From Psammoneis japonica (Eukaryota): a stretch of DNA of 64,000 nt. The first letter of the stretch is position 1. The number at the start of each line of letters is the position of its first letter. Positions 1-33,230 of the stretch are shown piece after piece. The notes beneath the pieces are model-generated. The model made no database searches, was not told the origin of the DNA, and saw nothing but the letters and a program-made list of their open reading frames with translations. The stretch covers positions 124,001 through 188,000 of the forward strand of contig QPGO01000027.1 of NCBI GenBank assembly GCA_008632985.1, read 5' to 3'. The translations under genes and the position numbers were made by a program.

Positions 1-121
1 GCAGGGACTTATGAAACCAGTCCTTGTGATACTCGAGATTGTTCTTGATGCTACTGGATGTGCTGCCGCCGCTGATGTTGTTGTTGTTGTTGCTTCCCAG
101 CACTTCGGTGTTGCCACTCAT
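1..121 (-). CDS. Possible 5' end of a gene running off the window edge
   Basis: Minus-strand frame from ATG at 121 (MSGNTEVLGSNNNNNISGG...LEYHKDWFHKSL) is open to position 1 in normal-composition DNA; no recognisable domain. Confidence 0.25.
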   Translation of the reverse strand, partial: MSGNTEVLGSNNNNNISGGSTSSSIKNNLEYHKDWFHKSL

Positions 122-412
122 GATTGTGTATAGTGATATGGTGGGAGAAACGCTATGTACCAGCGTCGCTGGAAGGGATGTGTGTCGTTGACGACGACGG
201 TTGCTGTCAGAGATCCTTCGCCGCCGCCGGCATGGTGTGTTGTGGTGTTGGGTGTTGCTGATTTTTAGGGTTTCTGGCGCGCTTATCATACTTTCAAGTA
301 CAAATAAAATTTATGTTTGATGTCATCACCAATTAACGATTCAGATAATTCAGTCGTGATCCGAGATCAAGCAAGTCGTGCCAATGACCTGAGCTAAAAT
401 CACCTCTCCACT

Positions 413-770
413 CACACAAACATCATGGTTGACATCATGACCCCTGACCCAACAATGCCCTCACTGTTTGCAAGTCCAAGTAATGCTGTCAACAACAACG
501 TGACAATTGTGAACATGCATCAAGCTTGGCAGCAACAGCCCTTTGTAAAGCATCAGGACACTCGCCACACAAACACCATGGTTGACATCATGACCCCTGA
601 CCCAACAATGCCCTCACTGTTTGCAAGTCCAAGCAATGCTGTCAACAACAACGTGACAATTGTGAACATGCATCAAGCTTGGCAGCAACAGCCCTTTGTG
701 AAGCATCAGGACACAAGAACAAGGCAGCAACAGCCCTTTGTGAAGAGCATCGGGGACACAAGAACAAACA
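413..770 (+). repeat. 153-bp tandem duplication plus a short partial third copy
   Basis: ATGGTTGACATCATGACCCC starts at 425 and 578; GGCAGCAACAGCCCTTTGTGAAG recurs near 723. Confidence 0.95.
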
Positions 771-1143
771 AGTTGAGCCGCCTTCTCCAGGAGCAAGTTG
801 GTTTCAGACAAAACAGAGTTTTTTTAAATGTCTCTGAGAGAGCTGAGACTCATGTTTTTTTGTCATCAGCACATTTTGTTGGGTGGTGGATGTGTGCATT
901 GGGACTGCTTTCACCCCCCACCAAGAGAAAAAAGCAAGAAACTTTTTGGCAACAACCCACAAGGTTTTCTGTGCATTTCCACGTGCCACACACTTTTGCA
1001 CGAAATTTGTGCAAGACAACTGAGCTCCAGAACACTGACATTTTTTTAATGCAAGCTCACACTTTTTGCTGGGCCACTGAGGAAAGCACAATGGTTAAAA
1101 TTTTGTTTCTTGGCACACAAACAAACAAATCTTTTTCACTTGT

Positions 1144-3396
1144 TTTAAGCCACCTGTGTGGCTCATTCTGTCTGCATTTTAAACACTTGTTGAGAACAGC
1201 TTCATTTGTTTTTTTCCTTGCATTTGTCAGATCTTAAGTTGCCTGTGTGGCTCACACAAGTGTTTTCTCTGTGTGCTGCAGTTTGCCACTTGCAGAGCAA
1301 AAATCAGTGAAATCGATTCCGTGATGTGCTTGACAAGTGCAAGACCCAGACAAACAACCCAGGTGAGTGTGAACAAGTTGATTGTTGCCACAGTTGCTTT
1401 TAAAAATGATGTGAATGTCACTCAATGCATTGTTCATGCAACATGGCACCACACAGGCGCAGTCTTGTTTTGGTTTCTTGGAAGAAGGGTGGGCTCCAGT
1501 TTTGGGTGGTTGAGATCTGCACTTGTGAGCAAAAAAGAAAAAAGCATGAACAATGTGCACCCTCGGTGTGACACACTCATCTCATTGATGATGTGAATGA
1601 TGCTCACAGATTTTGAACAGACAACTGTGTGTCTGGAATGTCTTTTCGGAAGCCAGATTTGGGTGCCACCTTTTGGAAAGCAACGGATGAAGCACGATCA
1701 AGTTTGCAAAAGTCACAAGTGACTTCAGTCATTTTCATGGGTGTCTCAGACTTCTGTTGTGTGCAAGTGACACTCACAGGGCACAGTGCAACAGTGAGGG
1801 GGTTGTTGCAAGTGTTTTCTTCACCATCCTGCTGTTTGACATGATGACTGCACTCATTCTGGCTGGTGCAAGGGACTCTTGGGGCATTGTTTGTCTTTCT
1901 TGGTTGATTTGTCCCATTTCAACAACTGTGTTGTTCAACAACAATGACAGGTGAACCAGACTGGGCATTTCAGTGGAGAAATGAACATTGTGCATGTGTT
2001 TTCTTGGCATGCTAGAGTTTGCCAGTTGAAACTGTCATGGCATGTTGCATCTCCTTGAGGTCATTGCGTGCAGCTCCCAGTCATGCAATCAGCTGTCAAC
2101 AGCACTGGTCTACACCACTTTGTCAAATTGCCCATCAAAAAATCTGTTCTCACAATTGCAGCAATGATTTCCAGCACTTGGAGCCTTGCAGAGAACTGCC
2201 TGCACACACCAAGTTCCAGTTCAATCCTGCTGTTGGGCTTGAATGTCACCAATTGCGTTTGTTGACTCTTGCCCTTGCTTGGTCACATTCAATGTCCTTC
2301 TGCACAGCAGATGATTCCTGGCACCTGCGCTGTTGCAAAGCCTTCAATCTGCAATGTTGACAAACTGCACATTGTTCTGCACAAGCAACATGATGAAAAT
2401 GGTTGTCCAACAGAAGTGCTCCAGCCAGCTGTTGTCAATTGCCTGTCACTGGCAGTGTTTTCTGCAGTTTGGTCCCAATCTTAGAAGCATTGTCCACTTG
2501 AAAATGCCTCTTCCCAGATGATGTGAACAGTTTGAGCTGTGCTCTGAATCAATTTGGTTGGAGCTGGCACACTCACATGATCCGAGGTCCAACTGCTTGC
2601 GGCTCCTCAGGAACTTGCACAATTTTTTGACACCTGACAACTGCACAGGATCATCTCATGCAGCCAGTGTTGGAGGGTGTCATTTGAGCCATTGATTGAA
2701 ACTTTTGGATGGTTTGGTGCAGACATTCAGTTGATTTGATTGTTGCAAATGATTGTGACAAGCAAGGATTGCCACGCTTGCTTTTGTTTTTGACACAGAA
2801 AACAAAACCAAAGAAAGACCTTGTGCCCTTCTTCATCATCTTTGTCAGATGTGCCATCCAAGTCATGGGTGTCTGCAGAAGGCATTCCACTCTTCTGGGC
2901 TGCCTTCAAAACATTTGCTGCAGCGTCTGATGCAGAAGAAACAAAGATGTTGAGTGAAAAGTTCAGAAGATGATTAAAGGCATTGAATGAAGATGCCTTT
3001 CTTTGGGGCACCCACCTTGTGATCATGATGATGTTTCTTCAATGTGCTCTCCAGGTGTTTTTTGCACTTGGTGTCAAATGTTGCCACCGCTGCAACTGAT
3101 CCCATGGTCGGCTTGAGTTGTGTTGCGTGTCTGTGTTTTGGAAAGAAAAAGAATTGATTTTGTGGGTTGTCAGCGTTTTTGGCAAAAATCACAGTGTGAC
3201 AGTCATGCAGGTGTGGCTCAAAAGCATTGTGACTCATTTTGAACTCTTGTTAAGAACAGCTTCATTTTATTTCCTCCAGATGTCAGATCTCTGCCTTTGT
3301 TTTAGTTGCCTGTGTGGCTCATTTTGTCCTCATTTTAAACCTCTCAAGAACAGCTTTGTTTGTTTCCTTTTCCTTCCATTTTGTCAGCTCTCTGCC
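1144..3396 (+). repeat. Dispersed ~100-bp degenerate repeat (copies at about 1144-1256, 3212-3305, 3305-3396)
   Basis: Shared CCTGTGTGGCTCATT...CATTTTAAAC...AGAACAGCTT...TGTCAG motifs. Confidence 0.75.
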
Positions 3397-4319
3397 TTTG
3401 CTTTGCTCTGTCTCTGCTGCACCTGTCCTTTTTTCCTGCTGGACACTGCACAACTCATCCTCCAATCTAACATCCACCAACAACGATGGTGTGCCCCTGT
3501 CACAATCCACTTTGTTGTCCTGGTTGGATGTGTGACAATGACAACAACAACAACAACAAGTGTGCTCTCTAAAGGCATTTTCAAAGGCATCTCCAGTGTT
3601 CTTCTTTCTCCATTTTGGCCTGAACCCTGATGATGACTTTGGGAAGCACACCCCCAGTGCTGCAGGAAGAGAAGCACTGGGAAGAGAGCAGGGAGAGCAG
3701 CTTAGATTTAAACTTGCCAAGGGATGGTCTTTGCATCACATGAGGCAAGCAATGGCACTGATGCTTGGAAAGCCACTGCCATGTGACAGAGACTGGGAAG
3801 ATTCTTTCATCTTCTTCCCTGGCTGTCACCATCACCGCAAAGGAAGACAATGGCCAGAGTTCATCAGCACGCATCCTCAGTGTTCCAAGGGGTTCATTCT
3901 GGCATTGAGTTTGATGACATGTCTTGGTGTCTTCTCCAATTGGAGCAACAGGCTTGCCTGGTGGAAGGTGCATGATGCACAGAGCAATGCCGCTTGAGAA
4001 GCTAAAATGGAGCATGTGGTGGTGTCCCCATGTCCCAGCAAACATTTGCCAAATGCCAAGCCAGATCATCATCATCACCACAAATGCACGTTGGCTTGAC
4101 TTGCTGCCTGCACAACATGCAACCCAAATGCACTCAGTCTGCATTTGTTGAGTGGGATGGCCCAATTGAGGAGGTGTCTTTTCACTCTTGATTTGGGAAG
4201 CTGCAAGCCTTGTCTTGGGCAGCAGCAGTCCCTTGTGTGATTCCTTCACAAACAAGAAGATCCCCAGCTGCACAAGGTGTGGAAATGTGAGGCCCACAGA
4301 TGTGGCAAAGGAGGTGTGC

Positions 4320-5411
4320 AGTTGTCTTAGGATGGCATTGGAGGACTCCAGTGGGTTGCCAGGGACATGCCAACAACCATGGTTGGGGAGCAAATGCCTT
4401 GGCTTGTGTCAATGCAGCACCTTGTCTCTCTGACATGACTGGCTTTGGCCCAGCCAGCCAACCTGCAGAGACAATGGAAATGTCTGTGCAAGGCAACAGT
4501 GCAAGTGCTCCATTGTCTTGGGAAAACATTGGATGACTCCATTGGGTCCTGGAGGATGCAATGACAACAATGGCTGGGAAGCAAAGGCCTGCAGAGACAA
4601 AAAAAACCATCTGTGCAACAGCGCAAGTGCTCAGTTGTCTTGGGATGGCTTTTGCATTGGATGACTCCATTGGGTCCCAGAGGATGAAATGACAACAATG
4701 GTTGGAAAGCAAAGGCCTTGTCTTGTGTCAATGCAGCCCTTTGTCTCTCTGACATGACTGGGTTTGGCCCTGCCACCCCACCTGCAGAGACAAGAAAACC
4801 ATCTGTGCAACAGTGCAAGTGCTCAGTTTTGTCTTGGGATGGCTTTGGTGACTCCATTGGATCCCAGAAAAGCCAACAACAACAATGGCTGGGAAGCAAA
4901 GGCCTTGGCTTGTGTCAATGCAGCCCTTTGTCTCTCAGACATGACTGGGTTTGGGTCCTGCCACCCCAGCTGCAGAGACAAGAAAACCATCTGTGTGCTC
5001 AGTTGTCTTGGGATGGCTTTTGGTGACTCCATTGGATCACAGAGGACACAACAACAACAATGGCTGGGAAGCACAGGCCTTGTCTTGTGTCAGTGCAGCA
5101 CCTTGTCTCTCTGACAGGACTGGGTTTGGCCCAGCTAAAAGAGCCAATTTGCAAGATGGACAAGGGAACCACCTGTGCAACAGTGCAAGTGCTCAGTTGT
5201 CTTGGGATGGCTTTTGGTGACTCCATTGGATCCCAGAGGAGCCAACAACAACAATGGCTGGGAAGAAAAGGCTTCATCTTGTGTCAATGCTGACCTTGTC
5301 TCTCTGACATCATGACTGCTGGGTTTGGCCCAGCCAAGAACCAATTTGCAAGAAAGACAAGGGAGCCATCTGTGTGACAACACAAGCACTCAGTTGTCTT
5401 GAGATGGGCAC
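4320..5411. repeat. Degenerate tandem array of ~130-195 bp units, left part (interrupted by the LTR element)
   Basis: About six recurrences of GACTCCATTGG..CAACAATGGCTGGGAAG..TGTCTCTCTGACATGACTGG..CAGTTGTCTTGGGATGG. Confidence 0.9.
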
Positions 5412-5687
5412 TGACAGGATTTGAACAGGATTTGGATGCGCGCGAAGTATCGCGCGCTGTTTAGTTTACCGCACACAGTTTTGTGTGCTTTAGTTCCGCG
5501 CGTTTGCGCGCGATGTAGTTTGCTTTCGAGCCACAAGGCTCACAAGAATAATAACAGTAGCCCGATTATACCGACCCACACGTCTTTCGGCTCCTGTAAC
5601 GGTCTCTGAGCGGAGACTCATCTGCTATTTAGACAGCAGTAAGGAGTTATTGTTTGAATTCTTGCCATTTGCCTTCAATTTCTGTCA
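5412..5687 (+). repeat. 5' LTR (276 bp)
   Basis: 270/276 identical to 12243-12518; TG...CA ends. Confidence 0.98.
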
Positions 5688-5704
5688 GATTAACAGTCTT
5701 GCTC
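5688..5704 (+). promoter_or_regulatory. Candidate primer-binding site complementary to the anticodon arm of tRNA-Asn(GUU)
   Basis: GATTAACAGTCTTGCTC directly follows the LTR; reverse complement contains GACTGTTAATC; no TGG-type 3'-CCA PBS. Confidence 0.55.
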
Positions 5705-6626
5705 ATTGTCAACCCATTGAGCAACCGCCATCGTCGTCGTTGATTTACCAACGACGCTATTTCAATTCTACGTGGACCTCCGTATATATTCTACATACAT
5801 CGGCAAGTCTACGCGCATCCAATACCAGGGCATCGGCAGGAAGTTAACGTCACCGTCAAGTCTCCTTACCGCTGGATATCTGGATTGATTATACTACCTT
5901 TGATCGCTGAAGACATACATTCAACGGTCATATCCAAGTCTATCCTTGATCCTCATCCCTTGATATACCTATTCATCGGTTAACGGTCAAGAATCCTACA
6001 TATTCAAGGATCTTCGTCGCTGAAGACATATATATATATACATATCTTCACGGCCAAGAACCTGTACACACTCTTCGGACTGCGGTTTTGCCACCACTCT
6101 ACAAGCACACCGAGTCCATTGTACCTGATCTACCCCGGACTACTGGTGCTCTACAGTTCTACTAGGTCCACGAGGACGACTGTGAGAGCAAGCAGCCGTG
6201 ATCACAGCCTGCGTTGGGGCGAGGGTGCTTTCCCGCGTTTGTTCGTTCGTCCACAGCGCCTGACGCCTGCGTCAACTGGCCAGCCTGATCGGGAAATCCA
6301 ACCGACATAAAATAAGAACGGTTCGGGGGTCTTGTCCACCTCCAGTCAGCTCACCTGCAGGGGCTTGCAACCCGCTACTCCGCTCGCAAGCAACCCAAAG
6401 CGCCACTGGCTGCGGGTTCGGACGTGCCGGCACAACTCTACGGACAGGATGGGAAGTTTAGCACTTGACAACGAACGGGATGGCAAAGCCCGGCGACTTC
6501 TGATTTTAAGATAGTTCAAGATTTCAAGTCAAGTCTGTTTCAAGTCAAGTCTGTTCTCACCCGAGTTTCAAGTCTGCCCTCGCTTCCCAATCAGAATTGA
6601 TTGTCCTGACACCACTTTTGTCTGCC

Positions 6627-7975
6627 ATGGTTCTCACTCGTCAGCAACAAATCGATGGTTTCGAGCACGTTGTTGGAACCGTGCTTGCCCAAGGTGCTGG
6701 GAGTCCTCTTCGTTTGGCTTTGGCCCAAGACGGCACGGACTCGTGTCAGGAACTGTTCACGTTCACACCGTCCCAAATCGACTCGCTTGTGTGCGACAAC
6801 GGCACCAATGTGATCCCTTTGCCTCGTGGTTATAAGAACATGTTAGCAGCACTGGTTGGTCTGCACATTGTCAAAGCACACAAAGGTCTTGACGTTGCCA
6901 ACGACTCCTCTTTGTTCACGCATGATGAGTTCCTTGCCTGCCGCCTCAGCCCGGACTGCATGTCCTCTGTGTCCATCGGCAGCTCACCCCTTGCACCTCC
7001 ACATGTCACCAACCCGACCAAGGCACGCGACCCGGTGCGAGACTTCAAGCGAGGCATCAAGCGTGATCCCACCGCTTTCACGGCTCTCAAATCCGGCAAG
7101 CAGTGGCACACTTGGCACACCTCACTTGTGGCACAAGCCCATGCCCAAGACGTCGAGTGCATTCTAGACTCGTCGTACAAACCGACCAGCCCCGAAGACA
7201 AACTGCTCTTTGCTGAACAGCAAAAGTGCATGTTCGCCGTCTTCGAACGCATCCTTCTCACCGACAAGGGCAAGGCTCTCATTCGCGAAAATGTGGGGTC
7301 CTCTGACGCACAGACCGTCTGCCGCTCCTTGTCTGAACACGCGCTTGCCTCCACCCGTGCATCCATCGAGTCCTCCACCCTGCTCACGTGCCTCACCACC
7401 GCACGTCTTGGTGATGGCACTTGGAAAGGTCCGACCCACGGGTTCATCCTTCATTGGCAAGATCAGTTGCGCAAGTGCGAGGCACTCATCCCCGCCAGCG
7501 ACCACTTCTCTGAAGGACAGAAGCGCGTCATGCTCGAGAATGCCGTGCACCCTGTCGAGGAACTCCGTGCTGTCAAGAACCAAGCTGATCAGCATCGTGC
7601 GCAGAGTGGCAAGAGCCTCACATGCGATCAACACTGTGGCTTGCTCCTCTCCGCGGCAGCTCAGTGCGACAGCACGTTTCAACCCAAGACGACACCTCGA
7701 GCTCCCCGACGCGCCATGTGCGCCCACGACGTCCACTCCGAGGAACCGTCCGACGATGTGTTCTACGACATTGACAGTGACGTTGACGTCCTTCAAGCCA
7801 ATGCTGCCTGCACCCGTGGTCCCAGCCTCACCGGTGTCCAATGGAGACGTCTCCCTCCCAACCACCAACGGCTCTGGGATTCGTTGCCCGATTCCTCCAA
7901 GGCGATCATCCTTGAGCACTCTCGCCCGCCTCCCCCAACCCGCGAGCCAGCAACTGCCATGAGTCTGTTACGGCC
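6627..7975 (+). CDS. gag: Copia Gag-like region (real frame probably switches to the pol frame near 7916-7975)
   Basis: ORF 6597-8318, ATG at 6627; FKRGIKRD and VMLENAV motifs typical of diatom copia Gag as I recall them; many Cys at likely Tyr positions. Confidence 0.85.
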
Positions 7976-10900
7976 AACCTTCACGACCAACACCTTGGGA
8001 GTGACGGTGATGTCAACTTGTCCAACACGACTCCTGCTGACTGTGGTGACTCCGCCACACATGTGGACGCCACTTCGGACAATCCCATCCTGGCGCACCT
8101 CACCAAGCGCAAGCCACTGCCACCCGGTGATCTGCAACGTCTGTTGTCTCCTAACCAAGCCCCCAATGCCAGTCGACCGGGGCCATCCGCTGCTTCCTCT
8201 ACCCCGCCAGCTTCTGCAGATAACACAGAACTTAACGGCCGCACTTGCCGCCGCGTTAACAACCACAATGTCATTTGCTCTGCCTCTGCTCATCGCTCCA
8301 CACGCACTGGCGCTCTAGTCGATCGTGGGGCCAACGGCGGCATTTCTGGCGACGACGTTCGCGTCATCGCACGCACCTCTCGCCAAGTCGACGTTCAGGG
8401 CATTGACGATCATCAATTGGTGGACATCCCCATTGTCGCCGCTGGTGCCGTCATTGAGACCCAGCGTGGTCCCGTCATCGCCATCCTCCATCAGCACGCA
8501 CACACGGGAAAGGGCAAGACCATCCATTCCTGCAGCCAGCTCGAATGGCACAAACAGGATGTCAACGATCGCTCTGTCAAGGTGCCCAATGGCTTGCAAC
8601 GCATTGCCACTCCTGATGGCTATGTCATCCCCATTGACATCAAGGCTGGCCTGCCTCATGTTGCCATGCGCCCTTGCACTGACGCCGAATGGGACACCCT
8701 GCCCCATGTCATCCTCACCGGTGATGACACATGGGACCCTTCCGTCCTCGATCACTCTGTCACTGACGACGACCAGTGGTGCGACGCGATCTCTGACCCA
8801 CAGGACGATCCCACTGCCAACCCATTTGACGAATGCGGCAACTGCCGTCACCGTGTCGTTGTCAACGAGACCATCTTGTCCGCTTCCTTGTCTGACGATC
8901 ACGCGTCCGCCCTCGATGATCACCTCATTCCGAACGACGACGTGTTCTACGAGTGTCATCTGCATGCGAGTGACCCCACGGGCGTTGACGTTCCACCTCC
9001 GGAGCGCACTGTGAAGCCCAAGGACCCCCCCTTCGAGTCTCTTCGGCCTTGCTTTGGCTTCCTGCCTGCCGATGCGGTCCGTCGTACTTTTGACTGCACC
9101 ACGCAGTGCGCCCGCATGCCCGCCGGCACACACCTTCGCAAGGCCTGCAAATCACCCAACCCCGCCCTTAATGTGCACCGCCGCAATGAGCCTGTCGCCA
9201 CTGACACCATTTGTGCCGACACCCCAGCCGTCGACTCTGGTTGCACCAGCGCCCAACTGTTTGTTGGCACCGAGTCTACCGTCACTGACGTCTGCGGCAC
9301 TAAGACGGACAAAGAGTTTGTCAACACACTCGAGGATCAGATCCATGAACGTGGTGCACCATCCAAACTCATTAGCGACCGTGCTCAAGTTGAGATCAGC
9401 AACAAGGTGCTCGGGATCCTGCGCGCCCTCTTCATCTCCAGCTGGCAAAGTGAGCCTCACCAGCAACACCAAAACTTTGCCGAACGTCGACACCAGACCG
9501 TGAAGCGCATGGCGAACACTGTCATGGACCGTTTTGGTTCGCCCGCCCACACATGGCTCCTGGCGCTCATGTGCGTGTGCTTCACACTCAACCACACAGC
9601 GTCCCCACGTCTCCACTGGCGCACGCCCCTCGAGACTCTCACTGGATCCACCCCGGACATCAGCCCATTGCTTCGCTTTCACTGGTGGGAACCAGTGTGC
9701 TTCCACCTCGATGACTCCGATTGGCCGTCCGAATCCCGTGAGTTGCGTGGACGCTTTGTTGGCATTGCTGAGCACGTCGGTCACCAGATGACCTTCAAGA
9801 TCCTCTCTGACGAGACTCAAAAGATCCTCTGCCGGTCCAACGTTCGCTCCGCTGCCCCCGATCCTGCCGTTCGAAACCTGCGTCTTGATCCTCCTGATGG
9901 GGAGCCACCTGAACCCATCATCAAATCTCGCCATGACGACAACCCCGTCGATTCTACTGATGGGGAGATCAGGACACCCAAGATGCCAGTTTTCGATCCG
10001 CAAGACATCATTGGACGTACCTTCCTCATGCAGCCACAAGAGGATGGACAACGCCACAGAGCTCGCATCGTCAAGGCCGTCGAAGACCACGAATGGAAAG
10101 TGAACGGCAATCCCGAGCTCACTAAGTTCGTCTGCTCTGTCAACAATGACGAATACGAGGAAGTCCTTGCTTGCAATGACATCATGAATCACATTGAGCA
10201 AGAAGACGAAGACACTGCCATTTGGAAATTTCGACGCATCGCATCACACGAAGGACCTCTGAAGCCTCACGACCCAACCTGGAAAGGCTCAAGCTGCAAC
10301 ATCATGCTTGAATGGGAAAGTGGGGAGATCACGTCCGAGCCTCTTGCCATCATCGCCAAGGACGACCCCGTCACCTGTGCCATCTATGCACGAGAGAACG
10401 GACTCCTCGACACGGATGGCTGGAAGCGGTTCCGCACTATCGCGAGGCGCCAAAAGAAGCTATTTCACATGGCCAACCAAGCCAAGCTTCGCTCCTTCCG
10501 CACTGCACCTCGCTACAAGTACGGATACGAAGTTCCCCGGAACTACAAACACGCCATGTCACTGGACGAACGCAACGGCAACCGCAAGTGGGGAGACGCA
10601 ACTAATCTCGAGATGGACCAACTCGACGAATACGAAGTCTTCCATGACTGCGGGCCCTTCAAGTCTTCCACTCCTCCTGCGGGACACAAGAAGATCCGAG
10701 TGCACCTGGTGTTCGACGTGAAACACGACGGTCGCCACAAGGCACGACTCGTAGCCGACGGGCACCTCACGGATGTACCTGTTGACAGTGTTTGCTCCGG
10801 AGCAGTCTCCCTCCGTGGCCTTCGGCTGATGATTTTCCTGGCCGAACTCAACGAGCTGGAGACATGGGCCACCGACATTGGCAATGCCTGCCTTGAAGCC

Positions 10901-12295
10901 ACCACCAAGGAGAAGCTTTACATTGTAGCTGGACCCGAATTTGGCAAACTCGAGGGACACATCCTTGTCATCCACAAGGCACTGTATGGACTTCGCAGCT
11001 CCGGTCTCCGCTGGCACGAGCGCTTCGCCGACTGCCTGCGAGCTGAAGGCTTCTTCCCCTGCCGCACCGAACCCGACATTTGGATGCGCAGGAACGGCGA
11101 CCACTATGAATGCACTGGCGTTTATGTGGATGACCTCGCCATTGCCATGAAGGACCCTCAATCTTTCATCGATACTCTCACGGAAAAGTGCAAGTTCAAG
11201 CTCAAGGGTACGGGACCCATTGAGTTCCATCTGGGTTGCGACTTTTCCCGGGACCCCGACGGAACCTTGTGCCTGTCTCCGCGCAAGTGCATCGAGCGCA
11301 TGGTCGACAGCTACGCCCGATTGTTTGGGGAGAAACCTGCCACCAACGCCCTGTCACCTCTAGAGAAGGGTGACCACCCCGAACTGGACACTTCCGAACT
11401 ACTGGGACCCGATGGCATTCACAAGTTCCAGTCTCTTGTTGGTTCACTCCAATGGGCAGTGTCCCTTGGTCGAATTGACATTGCCACGGCTGTCATGTCA
11501 CTCTCTAGCTTCCGAGCTGCGCCCCGTCAAGGCCACTTGGATCGTGCCAAACGCGTCTGTGGGTGCCTCTCCAAGATGCGACATGGTGCTCTCCGCGTTC
11601 GTACGGAAGAGCCCGACCATTCGGATCTCCCTGCTCCGGCCTATGAATGGATGCATTCCGTGTATGGTGAAGCAGAAGAGATGATCCCGAAGGACGCTCC
11701 ACCGCCCCTTGGCAAGTTCGTCACTACCACCCACTGCGTCGATGCAAACTTGCACCATTGCATGCTCACCGGACGCTCTGTCATGGGAATGCTCCACTTC
11801 CTCAACAAATTCCCGGCTGATTGGTTCTCCAAGAAACAAGCCACCGTGGAGACTGCAACCTACGGATCTGAATTTGTTGCCGCAAGGAATTGTGTCGAGC
11901 AGATTGTCGACCTGCGCATCACCCTGCGCTACCTTGGCGTCCCGATCCGTGATGTTAGTCACATGTTCGGTGACAACAAGTCGGTTGTAGACAGTGCCAC
12001 CATCCCGCACTCCAAGTTACACAAGCGACACACCGCACTGTCGTTCCACCGTGTGCGTGAGGCAATTGCCTCTGGTTACCTTGAGTTCCACTTCATCGAG
12101 GGCTCCCGCAATCCTGCTGACATTCTCAGCAAGCATTGGGGTTGCTCCCAAATCTGGGACCTTCTCCGCCCTCTCATGTTCTGGAACTTCATCCCATCCG
12201 AAGTCGAATCTGTTTCTGTGGCTCCTCAAGCAAACTGGGGAGTGACAGGATTTGAACAGGATTTGGATGCGCGCGAAGTATCGCGCGCTGTTTAG
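7916..12295 (+). CDS. pol: Copia Pol: protease, integrase, reverse transcriptase, RNase H (probably inactivated)
   Basis: LVDRGANGG (protease), ISDRAQVE and SEPHQQHQNFAERR (integrase), HKARLVADG, KALYGL, YVDD (RT), GDNKSV and NPADILSK (RNase H). Confidence 0.95.
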   Translation, partial: ALSPASPNPRASNCHESVTANLHDQHLGSDGDVNLSNTTPADCGDSATHVDATSDNPILAHLTKRKPLPPGDLQRLLSPNQAPNASRPGPSAASSTPPASADNTELNGRTCRRVNNHNVICSASAHRSTRTGALVDRGANGGISGDDVRVIARTSRQVDVQGIDDHQLVDIPIVAAGAVIETQRGPVIAILHQHAHTGKGKTIHSCSQLEWHKQDVNDRSVKVPNGLQRIATPDGYVIPIDIKAGLPHVAMRPCTDAEWDTLPHVILTGDDTWDPSVLDHSVTDDDQWCDAISDPQDDPTANPFDECGNCRHRVVVNETILSASLSDDHASALDDHLIPNDDVFYECHLHASDPTGVDVPPPERTVKPKDPPFESLRPCFGFLPADAVRRTFDCTTQCARMPAGTHLRKACKSPNPALNVHRRNEPVATDTICADTPAVDSGCTSAQLFVGTESTVTDVCGTKTDKEFVNTLEDQIHERGAPSKLISDRAQVEISNKVLGILRALFISSWQSEPHQQHQNFAERRHQTVKRMANTVMDRFGSPAHTWLLALMCVCFTLNHTASPRLHWRTPLETLTGSTPDISPLLRFHWWEPVCFHLDDSDWPSESRELRGRFVGIAEHVGHQMTFKILSDETQKILCRSNVRSAAPDPAVRNLRLDPPDGEPPEPIIKSRHDDNPVDSTDGEIRTPKMPVFDPQDIIGRTFLMQPQEDGQRHRARIVKAVEDHEWKVNGNPELTKFVCSVNNDEYEEVLACNDIMNHIEQEDEDTAIWKFRRIASHEGPLKPHDPTWKGSSCNIMLEWESGEITSEPLAIIAKDDPVTCAIYARENGLLDTDGWKRFRTIARRQKKLFHMANQAKLRSFRTAPRYKYGYEVPRNYKHAMSLDERNGNRKWGDATNLEMDQLDEYEVFHDCGPFKSSTPPAGHKKIRVHLVFDVKHDGRHKARLVADGHLTDVPVDSVCSGAVSLRGLRLMIFLAELNELETWATDIGNACLEATTKEKLYIVAGPEFGKLEGHILVIHKALYGLRSSGLRWHERFADCLRAEGFFPCRTEPDIWMRRNGDHYECTGVYVDDLAIAMKDPQSFIDTLTEKCKFKLKGTGPIEFHLGCDFSRDPDGTLCLSPRKCIERMVDSYARLFGEKPATNALSPLEKGDHPELDTSELLGPDGIHKFQSLVGSLQWAVSLGRIDIATAVMSLSSFRAAPRQGHLDRAKRVCGCLSKMRHGALRVRTEEPDHSDLPAPAYEWMHSVYGEAEEMIPKDAPPPLGKFVTTTHCVDANLHHCMLTGRSVMGMLHFLNKFPADWFSKKQATVETATYGSEFVAARNCVEQIVDLRITLRYLGVPIRDVSHMFGDNKSVVDSATIPHSKLHKRHTALSFHRVREAIASGYLEFHFIEGSRNPADILSKHWGCSQIWDLLRPLMFWNFIPSEVESVSVAPQANWGVTGFEQDLDAREVSRAV
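12232..12242 (+). promoter_or_regulatory. Short polypurine tract upstream of the 3' LTR
   Basis: AAACTGGGGAG abuts the TG of the 3' LTR. Confidence 0.6.
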
Positions 12296-12518
12296 TTTGC
12301 CGCACACAGTTTTGTGTGCTTTAGTTCCGCGCGTTTGCGCGCGATGTAGTTTGCTTTCGAGCCACAAGGCTCACAAGAATAACAACAGCAGCCCGATTAT
12401 ACCGACCCACACGTCTTTCGGCTCCTGCAACGGTCTCTGAGCGGAGACTCATCTGCCATTTAGACAGCAGTAAGGAGTCATTGTTTGAATTCTTGCCATT
12501 TGCCTTCAATTTCTGTCA
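12243..12518 (+). repeat. 3' LTR (276 bp)
   Basis: Matches the 5' LTR except six TA versus TG/CA sites. Confidence 0.98.
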
Positions 12519-12770
12519 GGCACAAGAGACTTCATTGGGTCCCTGAGGAGGCAAGAACAACAATGGCTGGGAAGGAAAAGCCTGGTCTTGGGCCAACACA
12601 GCTCCTTTTCTTCTGTCTGATGTGATTGGCTTGCTTTGGCCCAGCCACCTCACCTGCAGAGACAAGGGAGCTTTCTGTGCCATGTGACAGTGCAAGTGCC
12701 CAGTTGTCTTTGGATGGCCTTTTGGGTGCCTTCATTGTGTCTCAGGGGAGCCAACAACAACCAGGGCAAA
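12519..12770. repeat. Continuation of the degenerate tandem array after the LTR insertion
   Basis: GACTTCATTGGGTCCC..CAACAATGGCTGGGAAG..CACCTGCAGAGACAAG..CAGTTGTCTTTGGATGG resumes the unit broken at 5411. Confidence 0.88.
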
Positions 12771-14629
12771 TTCACAGTGTTCCCTGTCTCTTGTTTGGAT
12801 GGAAAACCAAGAGAGAGAGCAAAAGAGCAAGACCCACCTTCAAGTTGCCCACTTTCTTTACAAGGTTGGTCTCCAAAGTTGTCATTTCACTGGCATGAAG
12901 GGTCTGTTTCTGAGCTTTTTGGAGAGAGGCAATTGTCTTGTTGGCAGTGGCAGCAATTTTTGAATGCACCAAATGGCAAATGGGTGTTGATTGAGGTCCT
13001 GGAGCTGGGAGTGTGCAGCACGAGTGTGAAAATTTCAATCTTGACAAGAACATGTGAACAAAATCAAACTTTTTGAATGCATGTGTGACATTGGTGACTG
13101 AATGATTCATTTCACATTGAGGCAGTTTCAAATCATTCAAACCATTGTGTTGCAACAAAATCATTGATTTTTAAAACAAAGTCATTGCTGGAAAAGAGAT
13201 GCCAACAGGAATCAACTGATGGTCAGGCTTGCATTTTGGCCAAAAACAAGAATTGTTGCTCTCTCACAAGACACAAAAAATGCAAACTCAAGTCACACCC
13301 GACATCGGACAATGAGAGCAGTGGGGACAGGCAGCGGCATTGCGGATGGGACAGAATGACATGCAGAACACAAGGTGAGAAAAATGAGTGGCAAATGCAT
13401 GGAGATTGGGAGCACAATGCAAACAACTGACACTTGTGCACATCTTTGCACACAGACATCTAGACACGCAACCTGAGCTGCAATGGAAGATGGGCAACAG
13501 GGAAGGGCACAAAGGTGAGCAAAAGCAGCACATGAGATGAGATTGTAAGAAAAACACCAAGACATGCACAAAACCTTGTCATTGGCACAAAGTTTTCTCT
13601 TGTTGCAGGCAATGCTTTGAACTGCCAAACAGAAGGAGTGCAAGACAGATTGTTGCAGAATGAGATGTTGTTGCCTGGTGCAGATGATCACACAGAGAGC
13701 AAGAGTGGTTGCAAGGGAGGACACCAGTGCAGAAACAACAAAACAGAACATTTGCAAATGAGATGACAAGCAGCACACAGCAGATGCACAATCAGGCCAA
13801 CAAGACAATTGAACATCATTGTTGTCAGAAATGAACAATGTCAGAAAGTTGTTGTGAACACACGGTTGTTTTAAGAAAGAAACAAATGCAAGCAACAAGT
13901 TTCCTGCTTGGAAGGTCAGTTTAATTGTGGACAGATGTGAAAATGATGTCAAAACAAAGAGACATGAAAGATTGACAAGAATGTGTGTGTGATGCGACTG
14001 ACTTACATTGACCATTAAATCCTGCTTGGAAGGTTCAAACAATGGTCAAACTCCCTTTGTCAATGACTGTCAAGGACTTGTTGTGAACACATGATTCTGA
14101 ACAAGAGAATGTGAGCTCTGAACAAGAGCCACAACATTTTCCAGACGTTGTTCAAAACAGGCAGACCCAACAAAGAAACAGCAATGTGGTCTCTCAGATG
14201 CACCTGAAGAACAATGACATGCATTGTGTGCCATCATTTCTTGAAATGTGTTGCCTCCTGAACATTTTTGTTCATCAGATTCACTCACACAAAATGCACT
14301 GTGAAAGAAGAAGGACTGACACAATTGCCAACACCTGATTGGCACATTTCTCACCTGGGATGAAAGGACACATCTGTGTCATGAGCAATGGGCAATGGTT
14401 GCCCAGCAGGAGGTGTCATGCCACTTGCATCATGCAGAGGAGATTGTCATCCTCACCTGCACTCTCATCAAGGATGGTGTCACCAAGTTGGTGCAAGGCT
14501 GGCGCCAGCAATGTCAAGGCAGCAGGTGCAATGTGGAAAAATGATGCGCGGCTCTTTTTGCCACAGCATGATGCTTGTTGATTCTCTTTCCTTGCCCAGC
14601 AACCTGCTTTTGTTGTGCATGCTGCCAAC

Positions 14630-15390
14630 AATCTGTGGCTTGAGGCTTGAGGTCAACACCAGAAAATCCTCTTTCTGCTGTCAAACCCAGCTTGAGCATC
14701 TTGGCCATGTGACACAGTGCTCCTCAAAAGCACTCTTCTGTTGTGAAGCAAGATTGACAGAGCCAACTGAGCAATTTGTCCAACCAGCAAACAAACAAAC
14801 AAACAAAGAGAGCTGCAATCATTTGTGGGCACACAACTGACTGTGGTCAAGATGTGCATTGACGCATTGCTTTGAGAATTTGTTGGCACCCCCTGCAAGA
14901 CTTGTGGGTGGGACTGTTGGTAAATGGGGTTGTGCACACCAGTTGCAAAAAGAGTTCTCAGTTCCATCACATGCACCACACCAGATGACACACCATTGTC
15001 AAGTCCAGACTTCAACTGGCCACTTTTGAGATTCACACCAATGCCTCCAAAAATGTCAACTCAGATCAGCAGCACAGCAAAAGAACAAGCCTGTTGCTGC
15101 TTTCTGCAGTGGCAGAAAGCTCAACAGTGCTCAGCTGGGCTGCACAGTGGCAAAGAGGAGAGAACAAGTTGCCGTCACAGATCCCAAAGGAAATTAAAAA
15201 ATTGCATTGTCATTGGATGATTGTGTGCACTGATCACAAAAACCTCCAGCAATGCTGTGTTTCTAGGACAGAAAAAACATTTCATTGGAGACTGGCATGT
15301 GAAAGAAAGAGTGCAGCCCCAAACTGTGCTGTGTCAAGCACAGTGACAAGCTGGTGGCTGACACCTTGAGTTGCCCAAATCTTGAGGCAC
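14630..15390 (+). mobile_element. Relic of Ty3/Gypsy-type pol (RT end and RNase H)
   Basis: LEVNTRKSSFCCQTQLEHLGHV (cf. LKVN..KS.F...LEYLGY), PDFN..FEIHTNASK across a frameshift, IVCTDHKNL, VADTLS. Confidence 0.75.
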
Positions 15391-16289
15391 AGATGGACTC
15401 CAAGTGCAATCTTGCTGTCTTGGGTCCACCCAACAGAAGAAGTGATGCACAATTTCCATGTGAAGTCTTGACACATGATCATGGAAGCCAAAAAACATCA
15501 TCCCTGCAATGTTGCTGCTGCTTCCAGTTAATGCTCAGATGCACTGGTGCGCACTTCAAATGGCTTGGTCTTGAAATCTAGATGTGTCAGCAAAACTTCT
15601 TTTGTCACCTTGACACCACGCACTTGAAAATGTCAAGAGTGCTTTGTCTTTGACATGTGTTGACCCCATTTGGGAGCCCCACCTGTGAGTTTTGTGTGTG
15701 AGGGGCATCAAAATGTCCAAACAGCAGCATGGCCACATGTCTTTTCTTTGTTCTTTGGCTTGACAATCTGCTCAATTGCTTTGAATTTTTTGGTTGACAG
15801 CTGAGTGCCTTTTCTTGTGACGTGTTCTTTGGCTCAGCTGCAGTCAGCTCAGTTGCTTTGACCTTTTTGGTTGATGGCCATGAGTGCCTTCTCTTGGGAC
15901 ATTGCACCCAAGCCACTTCAAACAAGTTTGGCAAGATGCTGTCTTGCTGGCATTCACATCAATTCTGGCATCTCATTGGAGTTTTTCAAGGACCCCATCC
16001 AGTTTCTCAAGATGGTCTCCAAAGGATCCCTTTGTTGTCATCAGCAAATTGTCTGTGTGCACACATGCAAAAAAGGCACTTTTTTCTGAAATGTTTCTCC
16101 ACAGAAAAATTGAAGTGCAAAGCTCAAGGGATGATCATGCTGCATTGAGTCAAACACATCAGTGACCCAGTGCTTTTTGCTGCAGAAAGCATGCATCACA
16201 CAAGATGTTTGCTGGTGTTCATCACAGTTGTCAGCATGCAACATTTGTTGCAGCACTCACATGGATGAAGTGACTCCAGAGGGGAGATC

Positions 16290-16920
16290 ACTGTGTGCTG
16301 GCTTTGGAGCACTTTGAAAGGAGCTTGATTGAGGTGGCTCTCAGACGTGCAAACTTGATGTTGCTCTGCTGGCCAGGTTCCAACTTAAATGGTTGTTCAA
16401 CCTCAACCAATTGCGAACAAGCAACAAATTGGAGCATGGAAAGCACTGGAAGCACTTCACCAGAAAGGATGAGCCCAAGCCATTGGGGTGTCAAATTTCT
16501 CTGTCCAACATTTGCAGCAGAGCCAAAGGAAGATGGAGCACCAATCATGCCAGCAGTTGACCAGATCCAGGCAAGCATGACCCTGCAGCATGCTGACATT
16601 GTTGAGTGTTGCAAGCAGAACAGTGTCATGCTTCAAGCCTGCAGTCCATTGTTCAGACATGGACTGTGCAAACTCCAAAAAGAAATCAAAACAATCATGG
16701 CCAAGTGCCAAAATGTTGCTCCAACATGCACTTGTTGAGTTCCACCACTTGGGGATTGTGCAAACTCCAAAAAGAAATCAAAACAATCATGGCCAACTGC
16801 CAAAAGGTTGCTCCATCATGCACTTGTCAAGTTCTGCCACTCGCATGGTCACGAACACAGAGGTCTTTAATTTTGAGCCATTGGGTGCCAAAATGGAGCT
16901 TCCAAACAAGATCAACAAGT
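16290..16920 (+). pseudogene. Aldo/keto reductase relic with a ~92-bp internal duplication (16661-16841)
   Basis: PAVDQIQ...IVECCKQNSVMLQACSPL (cf. VNQIE...EYCK..GI..QAYSPL) and NTEVFNFE; stops and frameshifts. Confidence 0.75.
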
Positions 16921-17161
16921 CAGATGGTGCTTGGGGTTTGCCAGCGCCTCAAAAGTTTTTCCCTGGCAAACCAGAGGGCAAGTTGAGTTTAGATGGATCA
17001 ACCAGAGAGCAAAACCCACCAAGGCTTCGGCATCTTGTTTCTCTGCATTCTGCAAATGGGCAGTTGCAGCTCTTGTGGTGGTTGCGTGATGCCAGCAGAT
17101 GACTGCAGATTGGGGACAGTTGCCATCCCTGAGGCCAGGAGCTGTGGTCAACAAGAACAAT

Positions 17162-18760
17162 CTAATGCTGCTGAGGCTCAATGTTCCACTTCTTGATCAC
17201 AGTGCCATCGCTGGCATGAGCAGAAAGCTCATCGCCAATGTTGGCAGTTAAAAGCAACTGCTCTTTGGGTGTGACCTTGGCAACAAGTGAGCCATTTAGT
17301 GAGACCGAAATGTCTTTGACATTGTTGTTCATAAACAGAAATTCCACAAAACCCGTTTTCAGCTCATCCCAAACAATCCCGGCAAAATCCTTTACATGCA
17401 AAACAGCATTCTTTGCCTGTGGAGCATGGTTGATGTCCGACTCATCCACCAGAGCAAAGCGCATGCCTGCACCCCAGTTTTCATTTCCAGTTTTCTCCAA
17501 CTTTCCGCCTGCATCAGAACATGTGGCATCAAAGTTGGAGTCCCTGAACCAAAAACAAGTGCATGGTCCGTAGATCAATGCTCTTGACACGGAGCTCTCG
17601 TTTGGCCCCCCGCAATGTGTGATCTGGCCGTCAAACACAACGGCATCCCCCATTTCAACAAGTGGTGCACACCAATGATCTGGAGGACAGGCACTCACCG
17701 TTGCTCAAAAAAACGTTTGCATTTCTTGAAAGGGGCTCCCTTCCTCAATTAGAGCCTCGTTGAGAGCAGGCACGTTCATTGGAACACCGCTCAAGTGCAA
17801 TGACCCCACGCAGAACTCCGTCGGACCATGGGCATGAGCAGCATTCTCAACAAGTGGTGTGAACACACTGGAGGCGAAGGGTGGCAAGTCATGTCCGCCA
17901 ATTCCTGATGCATCAAAGCTCTCACTCATCCAAATGTAGCTCATGTCATCGTGTCAATGCATTGTTGGAGCACCACTCTCCAAAATCTCCGAACCCACCT
18001 GGCTCAAGATGACATCCGGTCCCAGCACCTTCTCATGACTCATTGTGTTGAGGACATTTTCGTTTTGGAACATTTCATGGCCACCCAGCCACCGGGGAAG
18101 AATGACATCATGGCACTTCTTGCCTTGATCTTGCACAATGTCGTGCACTCTAGAGTCTGCAGTCTTTGCATCCGCCCCACTGATCTGACCTGCATGGATG
18201 GCGTAGAGACAGTTGTCGTGTTTGGTGTGACACTCCTCTGCAATTTCTTTGGGGATGATGTTTCGCAAAACCAGCAAACGGCACTTGTTGAACATGAGAG
18301 CTGCTTCTTCAGGATCAAAGTCTTCAGCAGAGACATCCAATTCCCATTCCATGCAGTCGCAGTCATCCACAACACTTTCCAATTGACGGGCATGGCAATC
18401 CGTGCAGGCAGCAAACATCTCTTCCGCTGTCGGGCCGTCGCATTGTGACATGACCTCATTCTCTTGTTGTCCCATTGCCTCAAGCGTCAACTTCATGAGC
18501 TTGGCCAGGGAGTCGTCAGCTTTGTCATTGCCTTTGACCTCTGACAGTGGAATCATGGCATTCTTGAGCACATCAACCTTGTCAACCTGCATGCTCAAGA
18601 GGGCGGATTTTGCCAACTCTGACACAGCATCAATGCTCGATGTTGGTTGCTCAGCTTCTTGTTGGATCCCGGGCTCATCCTCGGAAGCGGAGATTCCACA
18701 GGCAAGCACCACAAGCACCAAACCTCGGAAAAGATGATTCATCACTGAGGAAAGCAACAA
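17162..18760 (-). pseudogene. Phytanoyl-CoA dioxygenase (PhyH)-like 2OG/Fe(II) oxygenase with signal peptide, disrupted
   Basis: Three collinear ORFs split by stops; SGAPTMH*HDD, GPTEFCVGS, GDAVVFDGQITHCGGPNES..RALIY. Confidence 0.7.
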
Positions 18761-20498
18761 TGAAACAATTGTGTTGTGCCATGCTCAATTAATGCGTCAA
18801 GCATCTCTGCACCAGGAGTTCACCAAAATTGTGTCTGATTTTTTCAAAAAAATTTGAGTCTTGCAGCCAAATCTGCAGCACTGCATGGATGGTTGAGCTC
18901 TCTCAAAATGACAGCAATGATGACCAATGGATGTTTTGGGGGTTGGCGCACGCAACTGTGCTGCCTGCGCTGTGTAAAAACTCAGGGATCTATCCCTCAC
19001 TGATTGGTCGCTTCAAATGAATGCACACTGAAGATCTTCCATCAAGTTGTTGCTGCTCAAGCACTGGGGGCACAGCTGGAGCAGAGAGGATGGGCAGGAT
19101 GATGAGAGCTCCAAGCAACAAGCACCACAAGCCTTGTTTTCCAAAGATCTGTGCCCTCAGAGTGAGGGCAAAGCTCATTTCAAGAAAGCACAACACTTTG
19201 GTGTGAGTGCATGGGCTCATGTGCCAAGCCTGTTGGTGTGCTGGGAGCACTTGAAGATTTGGCAACTTGACTCACTGCACCAAAAAGTGTGACAGCACCC
19301 CTTTGTGCCCCTCTGTGTCTGGGTTCAGAAAAGTGACACATGCCGTGCTTTCACAGCTGGCCCTCCCAGGCCTGTGGCAGACTGGCGCATGTGTGGCCAT
19401 GCCAGTGTTGAGCATGGCAGCAGCAGCATGAGATGCTTTTTCACCTCTCATTGTCTGCAGTCAATGATGCACATTATCTTGGAGGGTCTAAAGTGCTGTG
19501 TGGCTGGTGCCTTCTTGGCCAGCCTCTTTGCCCCACACATCCAGCTGTGCTGAGAGCTCAAAACGGCTCTGCTGTGGGAGCAAACAGCAAGGCAGTCACA
19601 GGCAGAGCTGGAGCAGTGCAACCCTCACCAAGCAAAAGCAAGAAGCTGACTCCAAAAGGAGTTCAAGGTGCTTGATGCAAGGTTTCCATGATCTTGACAG
19701 AGAACAGCTCAACACATGGCCAGAAGCAGGCGCCATGCTGATGCACCAGGCATTGCCCAAAGAGTTGACAGCTGTGCAGAAATGCTTGCTTTTGGCAAAG
19801 AAAAAACTGCAAATGCCACAACTTTTTCTCTGCTGCTGCTGCTGCTTGCTTTCTGGCCATGATGTTGCTTTGCAATTGAGGTGCTGTGCCCTGCTGAGAA
19901 AGGGTTGTGGGGGAGAACAGAGGGGGGCGGGCAATGCAGTGAAAAACAGCTGTGCAAAAGGCTTTGAAATGCCACAGCATGGAGAAGGGCGCCCCCAATC
20001 TGCTCAAATGGAGGAAAATGGAGGATCCAAAGCTGGGCACTCACAAGTGCTCACTTGATTGCAAAACTTTTGAGAACAAAAACTCTTGGCACGGAGCTGG
20101 CCAACTCCTGTCTGAGCATGAGGAGGAGCACTCCTCCGCCAACCTCTTGCAACAGATGTGATCTTAAAAAACAGCAGCCAAGCGAACCAATCTTTTGATT
20201 GTTGATGCCCTGCCGTTCTTGCCACAAGCCAGCCAAGAGAGAGAGAGGAGAGGAGAGAGAGAGCGTTCTCCACCAGTCGCACCCGGTGCTTACAACATGT
20301 GCAACAGCCACACTCACTGTTGTGAATGAAGTGCCGCCGGGGGGGGGGAGCACAGCCAGACTGGTTGGAAAAATAATGTGCGTGCGTGTTTTCTATTTTC
20401 GTTTTTTTTCCCCGTGAATTTGAAATTGCGATGATGGTGAACTGACGGTGAACATTGACCCCAGTCCCTCCTCTCTTTCTTCGTGTGACTCCGTCATA

Positions 20499-30600: not shown

Positions 30601-31187
30601 GCATTGTCCACAATGACGGGGTCTCCAGCTTTGGCATCAACGTCAGTGTTGCCGGACCCTTGAACAAAATGGGCCCCTGGCTCTGAAGTGTGTTCGTTGA
30701 CAGCACGCACCGCTGTGGTTTCAACGGCAGTTGATGGGTTCGTAGATGGTGCATCTCTTGGCAGTGCAGACTTGGGGACCGCTTGTTCCCTTCGCTCTTT
30801 GGTTCTTCTGTGACAATCCTTGACCTGTTCATCAATTGTCGGTGGAAGAAGCTTCTCGTTCAAGCCGCGACTTGTCTTCTTTTTCATCTTGTGCCGTCTT
30901 TCGTCGCATGTTGATGTCAAAAGTGTCATCGCCCCTGACCTTCTCATTCCTCTAGCTGTCTCTGTTGCATCAGATTTCTTTTCCGGGAATGTTTCTTCTT
31001 CTTGGGGTGCGCATTTCGTTTCAGGAAACTCTTCCGCAAAGTTGTGCCCTCTGAATGCCGTGGCACCCACTTCGTTCGACTTGACTGAAGCCATGCCATG
31101 TGAAGTCTCTGGCGTGCTGTGCCATTTTGGCATGGGTGGGGGCTGCAGTGGTTTAAGGTCCTCCCTGTGCGGTGACTGTTTCTTCAT
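27670..31187 (-). pseudogene. TM-anchored LRR receptor-like protein, frameshifted and TpA-depleted
   Basis: Low-complexity N-terminus, TM helix, LRR cap (C.W..GIFC), many L..N.L.G.IP repeats; frameshifts near 29310, 28845 and 28200; His/Cys at Tyr positions. Confidence 0.85.
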
Positions 31188-31552
31188 CCTCGTAGCAGCA
31201 ATCTTGTTCGCACACGTTGCTGAGATCGCAGGAAAACGCAGCACAGCCACAACAAGCTTTCGACTTTTGCCTGAGAAGAATGCAAATTTTCTTGTGCGAG
31301 GGTTTTTACCTGCCTCTCTCTCTCTTTCTCTCTCTCTTTCTCTGTTGATGAAAGAAATGGGATGAGCGATCCTGTTGTAAAAAAGATTGGGTTCGGATTC
31401 ATGAATGAACTTGCTTCACTTCCGCTGTCACTTCTGCATTTTTTTGGAAGCAGGTTCTGACCAACTCGACTCAAGCAATGCGGGAGTGACCTGGATGCCT
31501 TTAACCACCTGTGGCACTCCAGGCCAATCGTCAGGTCAATCGCCCTCTGTCA

Positions 31553-31558
31553 CTCTCT

Positions 31559-31597
<39 letters not shown>

Positions 31598-31623
31598 TTT
31601 CTCTCTCTCTCTCTCTCTCTCTC
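31553..31623. repeat. (CT)n microsatellite (others at 31313-31342 and 39879-39909)
   Basis: Directly visible. Confidence 0.95.
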
Positions 31624-33174: not shown

Positions 33175-33230
33175 CGTTGAGCGTTGTTGATGGTTGACGC
33201 ATGTCTTTCGCTATCTGCGCTCGTTGAACC

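Follow-up and report, generated by a model that had tools for sequence, protein, structure and literature searches.

A 64,000-bp stretch of the Psammoneis japonica assembly GCA_008632985.1 (contig QPGO01000027.1, positions 124,001 to 188,000 of the forward strand; referred to here as the window and numbered from its first base) contains a Ty1/copia-type long terminal repeat (LTR) retrotransposon in which conserved tyrosines of the polyprotein are replaced by cysteine and histidine. This loss of Tyr was very probably caused by a local hypermutation that acted after integration, from approximately position 6320 to the 3' LTR, and that changed only TpA dinucleotides. The process is specific to TpA, starts from ancestral TA, acts on DNA after integration and is restricted to local tracts. 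The element inserted into an old satellite, and the DNA from approximately 6320 through the 3' LTR would then have been hypermutated locally, with TpA changed only into TpG or CpA. The outcome in the protein would be almost purely Tyr to Cys (TGY) and Tyr to His (CAY), and no stop codon could arise, so that the dead element would keep its open frame.

The gag and pol frames of the element were aligned with 120 relatives, the best of the 2522 that a protein search returned at E <= 0.001, and Tyr columns were defined as those with Tyr in at least 70% of the relatives. Across the 50 columns obtained, the element has Tyr in 15, Cys in 24, His in 5 and other residues in 6. A leave-one-out control over the 120 relatives (5226 cells) gave 4655 Tyr, 32 Cys, 79 His and 460 other residues, and the excess of Cys and His in the element is highly significant (Fisher p = 4e-34). 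Both parts of the polyprotein are affected: the 12 conserved Tyr columns of gag have 1 Tyr, 8 Cys and 1 His, and the 38 of pol have 14 Tyr, 16 Cys and 4 His. Opposite the 73 Tyr of one relative, P0002, the element has 15 Tyr, 26 Cys and 14 His. Cys and His together make up 55% of these positions, compared to at most 8% in the 75 metagenome relatives with DNA. The composition of the protein is shifted accordingly, with Tyr at 1.3% vs 3.9%, Cys at 2.9% vs 1.1% and His at 4.9% vs 3.5%. At conserved non-Tyr columns the element differs at 90 of 845 (10.7%), compared to 9.4% for the relatives, and judging by this alignment the protein outside its tyrosines looks like that of a working element.

The preliminary description of this DNA had proposed the recoding from individual motifs, and the motif sites and the 50-column alignment agree that it is real. 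The relatives have Tyr at the altered codon of ERRHQ (9491, CAC; 65% of relatives), TDIGNACL (10889, TGC; 100%), HCVDAN (11735, TGC; 86%), KHWGC (12143, TGC; 90%) and KCMFAV (7227, TGC; 75%), and for KACKSP the consensus of 21 sequences gives HYKSP. The longer motif HCVDANLHH is supported at its first Cys (11735), whereas the second His of LHH is not, the relatives having Phe, Tyr or Met there. Cys or His shared by the relatives at the same positions would have spoken against the proposal, and these residues occupy only 111 of the 5226 control cells; the sequences of the relatives thus support Tyr as the ancestral residue at the Cys and His positions. The Tyr of the YVDD motif (codon 11123) is retained in the element.

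In one metagenome relative, P0114, 8 of 48 conserved Tyr columns hold Cys and 5 hold His, far more than in the other 119 relatives; this environmental sequence may have undergone a milder form of the same mutation. Another sequence, L032, was considered as a second hypermutated relative and rejected; it has a TA observed/expected ratio (o/e) of 0.29 but retains 28 of 37 Tyr, a pattern attributed to codon usage instead.

The changes from TAY to TGY and from TAY to CAY are TA to TG and TA to CA, and the factor common to both is therefore the dinucleotide TA. Tyr (TAT/TAC) is the sole amino acid with TA in every codon. Among the substitution classes, only Tyr to Cys (24 observed, 0.31 expected) and Tyr to His (5 observed, 0.76 expected) are strongly enriched, and the class NTA to NCA (Val to Ala, Leu to Ser) was observed 4 times with 0.83 expected. 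Of 41 Ile columns 33 are unchanged, and of 86 Leu columns 80. Changes of A to G at the second codon position outside TA number 8 with 3.8 expected, and Lys and Asn are retained in 41 of 46 and 21 of 24 columns, respectively. The companion changes of Ile to Val, Met or Thr and of Leu to Pro that had been anticipated are not enriched: A to G at the first codon position was found 5 times (4.2 expected), Ile to Met once (0.4 expected), and Ile to Thr and Leu to Pro not at all. The mutator is thus directional, as had been suggested, but it is not a general A:T to G:C process; the changes in the protein, together with all 6 of the differences between the two LTRs, are those of TpA to TpG or CpA, and the other A and T classes lack enrichment.

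The same specificity is seen in the DNA. TpA o/e stands at 0.10 in gag; in pol it is 0.17 up to 10300 and 0.34 thereafter, and TG and CA are raised, reaching o/e values of 1.40-1.61 and 1.16-1.38 in the element body. The coding part as a whole has a TpA o/e of 0.22; none of the 76 elements compared is lower, and the relatives range from 0.29 to 1.22. At codon positions 1-2 of pol, TA occurs 19 times with 56 expected, and this deficit is offset by TG (+28) and CA (+11). The family prefers codons ending in C, which left few other TA sites and accounts for the near-pure Tyr damage. This preference also brings C before G at codon boundaries 175 times with 100 expected. The loss of TA across codon boundaries (22 vs 119 expected, with a gain in CA only, +92) was considered as a sign of purifying selection and rejected, since C followed by G is also in excess there (+75); both the loss and this gain result from the general preference for C-ending codons.

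The two LTRs of one element are identical at integration. Those of this copy differ at 6 of 276 aligned columns, each time with TA in the 5' LTR; the 3' LTR has CA at 5 of these sites and TG at 1, and no difference other than at TA was found in the 276 columns. LTRs that were identical at integration and now differ at TA have been changed at the DNA level after integration, and this change appears from the pair to have been quick relative to background mutation. Other copies of the element were viewed through contigs of four sequencing runs (X1-X4) from one sample of one study, and the comparison of copies rests on the 40 of 471 differences that were listed. The family is very abundant, with 13,637 contigs placed on the element in run X1. 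At least 7 adjacent pairs have TG in this copy and CA in others, or the reverse (e.g. 7389/7390 and 7632/7633), with TA as a minority state. A single LTR site occurs in three states, being TA in the 5' LTR, CA in the 3' LTR and TG in the loose end of another copy, and positions 6536-6537 are TG in this copy and CA or TA in other copies. TA is ancestral because it alone leads to either TG or CA in one step, and because the relatives carry Tyr at the recoded positions. The polarity is therefore from TA to TG or CA, and the action is on DNA and at least partly post-integration. At five further sites (7778, 8191, 12336, 6405 and 11066) this copy has TG or CA where other copies have CG, which indicates that ordinary CpG decay is in progress in this copy too.

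The TA profile of the window is bimodal. Host genes have a TA o/e of 0.45-0.8 and a CG o/e of approximately 1, and the borders of the TA-poor islands are sharp to approximately 250 bp. These islands (TA o/e 0.0-0.3) span 1-5400, 12520-20250, 27750-33250, 39750-41000 and 62000-64000. Those at 1-5400 and 12520-20250 are old islands on either side of the element, composed mostly of a satellite with a unit of approximately 190 bp, with TpA at 0.0-0.1, CpG at 0.03-0.2 and TG/CA at approximately 2.0. In the satellite flanks, TA o/e is 0.00-0.07, CG 0.00-0.03, and TG and CA 1.6-2.0; the copia element landed in DNA that was already TA-erased. The young element still has a CG o/e of approximately 0.9 at a TA o/e of 0.1-0.3, which means that TA erasure outpaces CpG decay. 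The island at 27750-33250 is a second TA-poor region (TA o/e 0.0-0.29, CG 0.4-0.8). Four overlapping open reading frames (ORFs) on its minus strand (27847-29955) lie in different frames and all match leucine-rich repeats (LRR_1 up to 68.7 bits). This region looks like a frameshifted leucine-rich repeat (LRR) gene copy struck by the same erasure, which on this view extends beyond transposons.

It had been proposed that this mutator is unable to turn a sense codon into a stop and able to erase TAA and TAG, and both points are borne out by the codon table and by counts. A change of TA to TG or CA makes no stop from any sense codon, and it converts TAA to TGA or CAA and TAG to TGG or CAG. The 5.6-kb element body has 19 TAA or TAG trinucleotides on one strand and 38 on the other, whereas 7 kb of host DNA has 94 and 92; TGA is not depleted in the body. 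With TAA and TAG removed, many long spurious frames are found on both strands. The pol frame is open as had been described, over 1459 codons rather than 1425, but the polyprotein is not in one frame: near 7931 the reading frame shifts by one base between gag and pol. In the relatives gag-pol is one ORF. An extra C behind 7931, giving C6, is present in all contigs from X2-X4 at this place and in 3 contigs of X1, and the offset at the C5 run may reflect either true loss of a base or a sequencing error in the homopolymer. At its other end, the pol frame extends 52 bases into the 3' LTR, and the tail after LMFW has 35 residues, compared to approximately 10-20 in most of the relatives shown. An in-frame CAA (12227) and TGG (12236) are located where the C-termini of the relatives end, and from their position it is plausible that the stop codon of pol was lost to the mutator; the 40 listed differences between copies include none with TAA or TAG at these codons.

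The process can be compared with several known systems. Repeat-induced point mutation (RIP) of Neurospora and other ascomycetes changes CpA to TpA, makes DNA richer in A+T and creates stops. Like RIP, the process described here is a dinucleotide-specific transition hypermutation at the DNA level that inactivates repeated DNA and spares adjacent genes. It differs in that TpA is changed to CpA or TpG, G+C rises and no stop is possible, and this opposite direction implies a chemistry other than cytosine deamination. The C to T changes at CpA, gain of TpA and new stops that mark RIP are not found, as the polarity is reversed and TAA and TAG are depleted. Footprints of APOBEC (G to A) and ADAR (A to G) in LTR retroelements arise on cDNA or RNA before integration. 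In both cases retroelement copies carry clusters of transitions in a single direction, as a record of host editing. Such footprints, however, are present in both LTRs and in other contexts, whereas here the LTRs differ and non-retroelement DNA is affected. TadA and ADAT enzymes deaminate A at U-A and in bacterial mRNAs convert Tyr (TAC) to Cys at few, structured sites. The A following U or T and the typical coding outcome of Tyr to Cys are common to both, whereas the changes reported here are heritable in DNA, take in most TA sites of a multi-kilobase tract and fall on both strands.

The closest match is the chlorarachniophyte Bigelowiella natans. Two integrated viral regions of this alga gained 231 mutations in mutation-accumulation lines, of which 230 were A to G or T to C, all on TpA; the targets are integrated giant-virus and virophage DNA, and an ADAT2-like DNA adenine deaminase was proposed as candidate enzyme (Mettrop et al., bioRxiv 2026, 10.64898/2026.01.13.699255). 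Both systems have changes of TpA to TpG or CpA only, in sharply limited local regions with normal adjacent genes, and reverse transcriptase (RT) and DDE domains are enriched among the TpA-poor coding sequences of B. natans, the element here being RT-bearing. The two differ in host, which here is a diatom-like stramenopile, and in targets: the DNA affected in this case comprises an LTR retrotransposon, a satellite and the copy of an LRR gene. TA was erased much more completely in the window (TA o/e 0.0-0.3, compared to 0.45 for their region of nucleocytoplasmic large DNA virus origin), and the rate is inferred from sequence here and was measured there. The Tyr to Cys or His read-out and the absence of new stops are not described in the Results and Discussion of the preprint. 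By the thresholds given there (Rho TpA <= 0.43 and CpA+TpG >= 1.52), the flanks qualify on both counts; the element body (7001-12000) falls below the TpA threshold throughout, and CpA+TpG reaches 1.52 in 1 of 5 1-kb bins (1.23-1.52). The window thus has the same signature as B. natans, now in a diatom-like genome, which widens the host range of the process. No description of TpA hypermutation in diatoms was found in the literature searched, the Bigelowiella preprint being the sole relevant work among the results, and the terms RIP, dinucleotide and hypermutation are absent from the text of Maumus et al. 2009 and of a 2025 preprint on diatom transposable elements.

Several observations weigh against local hypermutation after integration as the cause of the Tyr loss. 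The first ~900 bp of the element (the 5' LTR and the leader to approximately 6320) are untouched within a fully erased island, which this reading does not account for. This part has 58 TA at an o/e of 0.8-1.0 (15 TA and 0.80 in the 5' LTR alone), and the unmutated leader is TA-rich, including a TATATATATA run near 6030, in sharp contrast with its surroundings; leader sites 6163 and 6512 are mutated in some other copies. Conversion of Tyr sites is 23 of 25 in 6627-10300 and 12 of 26 in 10301-12242, and 6 of 15 TA sites were converted in the 3' LTR. At former Tyr sites A to G is found on the sense strand in 27 cases and on the opposite strand in 8, and the sense strand was changed in 12 of the 14 cases in which both As have C at +1. 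The 3' LTR has the opposite strand preference (1 TG, 5 CA). Tyr sites with C as third base were changed more often (31 of 40) than those with T (4 of 11; p = 0.02). An excess on the sense strand is expected of RNA editing, and part of the load of the body could therefore predate this insertion. Most of the depth in X1 has the C5 run of this copy, and mutated dead lineages may have been propagated in trans, making the timing after integration less certain; the other copies, moreover, were seen through the 40 listed differences in runs of a single sample. The uneven load may reflect several tracts or episodes, and some of it may be inherited from a mutated source copy that was mobilised in trans. 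A gradient like that of human immunodeficiency virus, from editing of single-stranded cDNA, was rejected, because the LTRs are not identical and the load of the body decreases in the 3' direction.

The strand bias is what would be expected if A-to-I editing of RNA by an ADAR- or ADAT/TadA-like enzyme with a 5' U preference had been fixed by reverse transcription, the copy being born mutated; the dominance of Cys over His at former Tyr sites, which persists where the +1 base is the same, would follow, and the UA context suits the 5' neighbour preference of such enzymes (see the Discussion of Mettrop et al.). This origin is nevertheless very unlikely. Since a single template gives rise to the two LTRs, the 6 TA-type differences require change in DNA after integration, and edits common to both LTRs on one strand are not what is found, the outcomes including TG and CA. 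The change from TA to CA at 8 former Tyr sites and at 5 of the 6 differing LTR positions means that the other strand was struck, the satellite flanks were erased although never reverse transcribed, and the leader is unmutated although it belongs to the transcript. An untargeted bias of repair or replication in silent chromatin, such as patch synthesis by a polymerase eta-like enzyme with WA to WG errors and no dedicated deaminase, is unlikely too. The erased islands are also CpG-decayed, as methylated silent DNA would be, and the sense A to G bias resembles the A:T phase of somatic hypermutation. The AA context, however, is spared, as the second-position changes outside TA and the retained Lys and Asn indicate, specificity for TA is close to absolute, and erasure outpaces CpG decay in the young element.

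The G+C content of the element (0.56-0.59, compared to approximately 0.47 in host DNA) is what a mutator turning A:T into G:C in general, or GC-biased conversion of every A and T, would produce, yet such a process is most improbable given the retention of Ile and Leu, the lack of Leu to Pro and Ile to Thr, first-position A to G changes near expectation and LTR differences that all lie at TA. The excess of G+C is mainly third-position C, which also lifts C followed by G across codons. It is scarcely credible that no mutation took place, with a family that tolerates Cys and His or base-calling errors at modified TA sites. It is true that the runs come from one sample and that a homopolymer error could account for the C5/C6 offset. 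However, the relatives almost never have Cys or His at these sites, TG, CA and, as a minority, TA alleles are found side by side at them in the contigs of four runs, and the 5' LTR and leader, which lie on the same molecule, read TA normally.

Under the preferred explanation, local hypermutation of TpA after integration, the change would come either from conversion of the A of TpA into inosine by deamination or from a modified T that pairs with G, and because TA is its own complement the two are indistinguishable by sequence. By analogy with the proposal for B. natans, the process would be an enzymatic, targeted defence. A broader reading can be offered tentatively, as a possibility somewhat short of even. 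Diatoms may have a regulated mutator that is aimed locally at transposons, satellites and duplicated genes, changes TpA to TpG or CpA, follows a RIP-like logic with the opposite chemistry and kills through tyrosines. It might share its origin with the Bigelowiella process and be old in the stramenopiles, alveolates and Rhizaria, and the sparing of the 5' LTR and leader might mark aiming by chromatin state or a guide RNA.

As far as the searches show, TpA-specific A:T to G:C hypermutation of foreign or repeated DNA has one prior description, the 2026 chlorarachniophyte preprint, and the LTR pair of this young element catches the process in action as a dated natural experiment. As TAA and TAG are removed and stops are never made, inactivated transposons and gene copies pass as intact genes in annotation. 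A composition poor in Tyr and rich in Cys and His is a simple flag for such copies. Because all LTR differences in this element come from the mutator, dating by LTR divergence is biased in genomes of this kind.

The coordinates of the element and its parts are given in Table 1. It is a Ty1/copia-type LTR retrotransposon of a type common in diatom-like metagenome contigs, inserted in an old satellite. The LTRs are direct repeats of the form TG...CA and are flanked by a 5-bp duplication, and the copia-type RT domain scores 89.5 bits against a cutoff of 31.6, compared to 104 bits in the relatives P0001 and P0002. The Pfam domain rve was not found in the window at E <= 0.01 or in P0001 and P0002 at E <= 0.1, and a megablast search of the element against a phage collection gave no match. 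The best 120 of the 2522 relatives have 60-72% identity and are mostly single gag-pol ORFs of approximately 1850-1940 aa on metagenome contigs of approximately 7 kb; the ATG at 6627 agrees with their N-terminus.

Table 1. Features of the Ty1/copia-type element and its insertion site (positions in the window)
Feature	Position	Strand	Remarks
LTR retrotransposon	5412-12518	+	Ty1/copia-type, single-ORF gag-pol kind
Host satellite, insertion target	4314-5406, again from 12524		Unit ~190 bp; tandem and direct repeats
Target-site duplication GGCAC, left copy	5407-5411		5 bases directly flanking both LTRs
5' LTR	5412-5687	+	276 bp, TG...CA; direct repeat and alignment; not TA-erased
Leader, unmutated part	5688-6320	+	43 TA, o/e 1.02; no excess of TG/CA
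Leader, TA-poor part	6321-6626	+	Start of erased tract; TA o/e 0.30
gag part of polyprotein	6627-7931	+	Frame of ATG 6627; tblastn, residues 1 to ~441-450 of relatives
pol frame	7916-12295	+	Open 1459 codons; ends at TAG 12293-12295 within 3' LTR
C5 run, gag and pol frames one base apart	7932-7936	+	Frame change mapped to ~7925-7940
Reverse transcriptase domain, Pfam RVT_2	10676-11308	+	89.5 bits; pol-frame residues 921-1131
In-frame CAA (12227-12229) and TGG (12236-12238)	12227-12238	+	Candidate former stops, inferred
3' LTR	12243-12518	+	276 bp, TG...CA; partly TA-erased; 9 TA, o/e 0.52
Target-site duplication GGCAC, right copy	12519-12523		Matches left copy

Outside the element, a host gene at 34095-36989 encodes a DEAD_2/Helicase_C_2 helicase (Rad3/FANCJ-like) with an inserted PDZ domain. 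This architecture of helicase and PDZ domain is common to the diatom relatives found. The named relatives of the helicase are all diatoms, namely Skeletonema, Conticribra, Cylindrotheca, Thalassiosira oceanica and a metagenome-assembled genome of Bacillariaceae.

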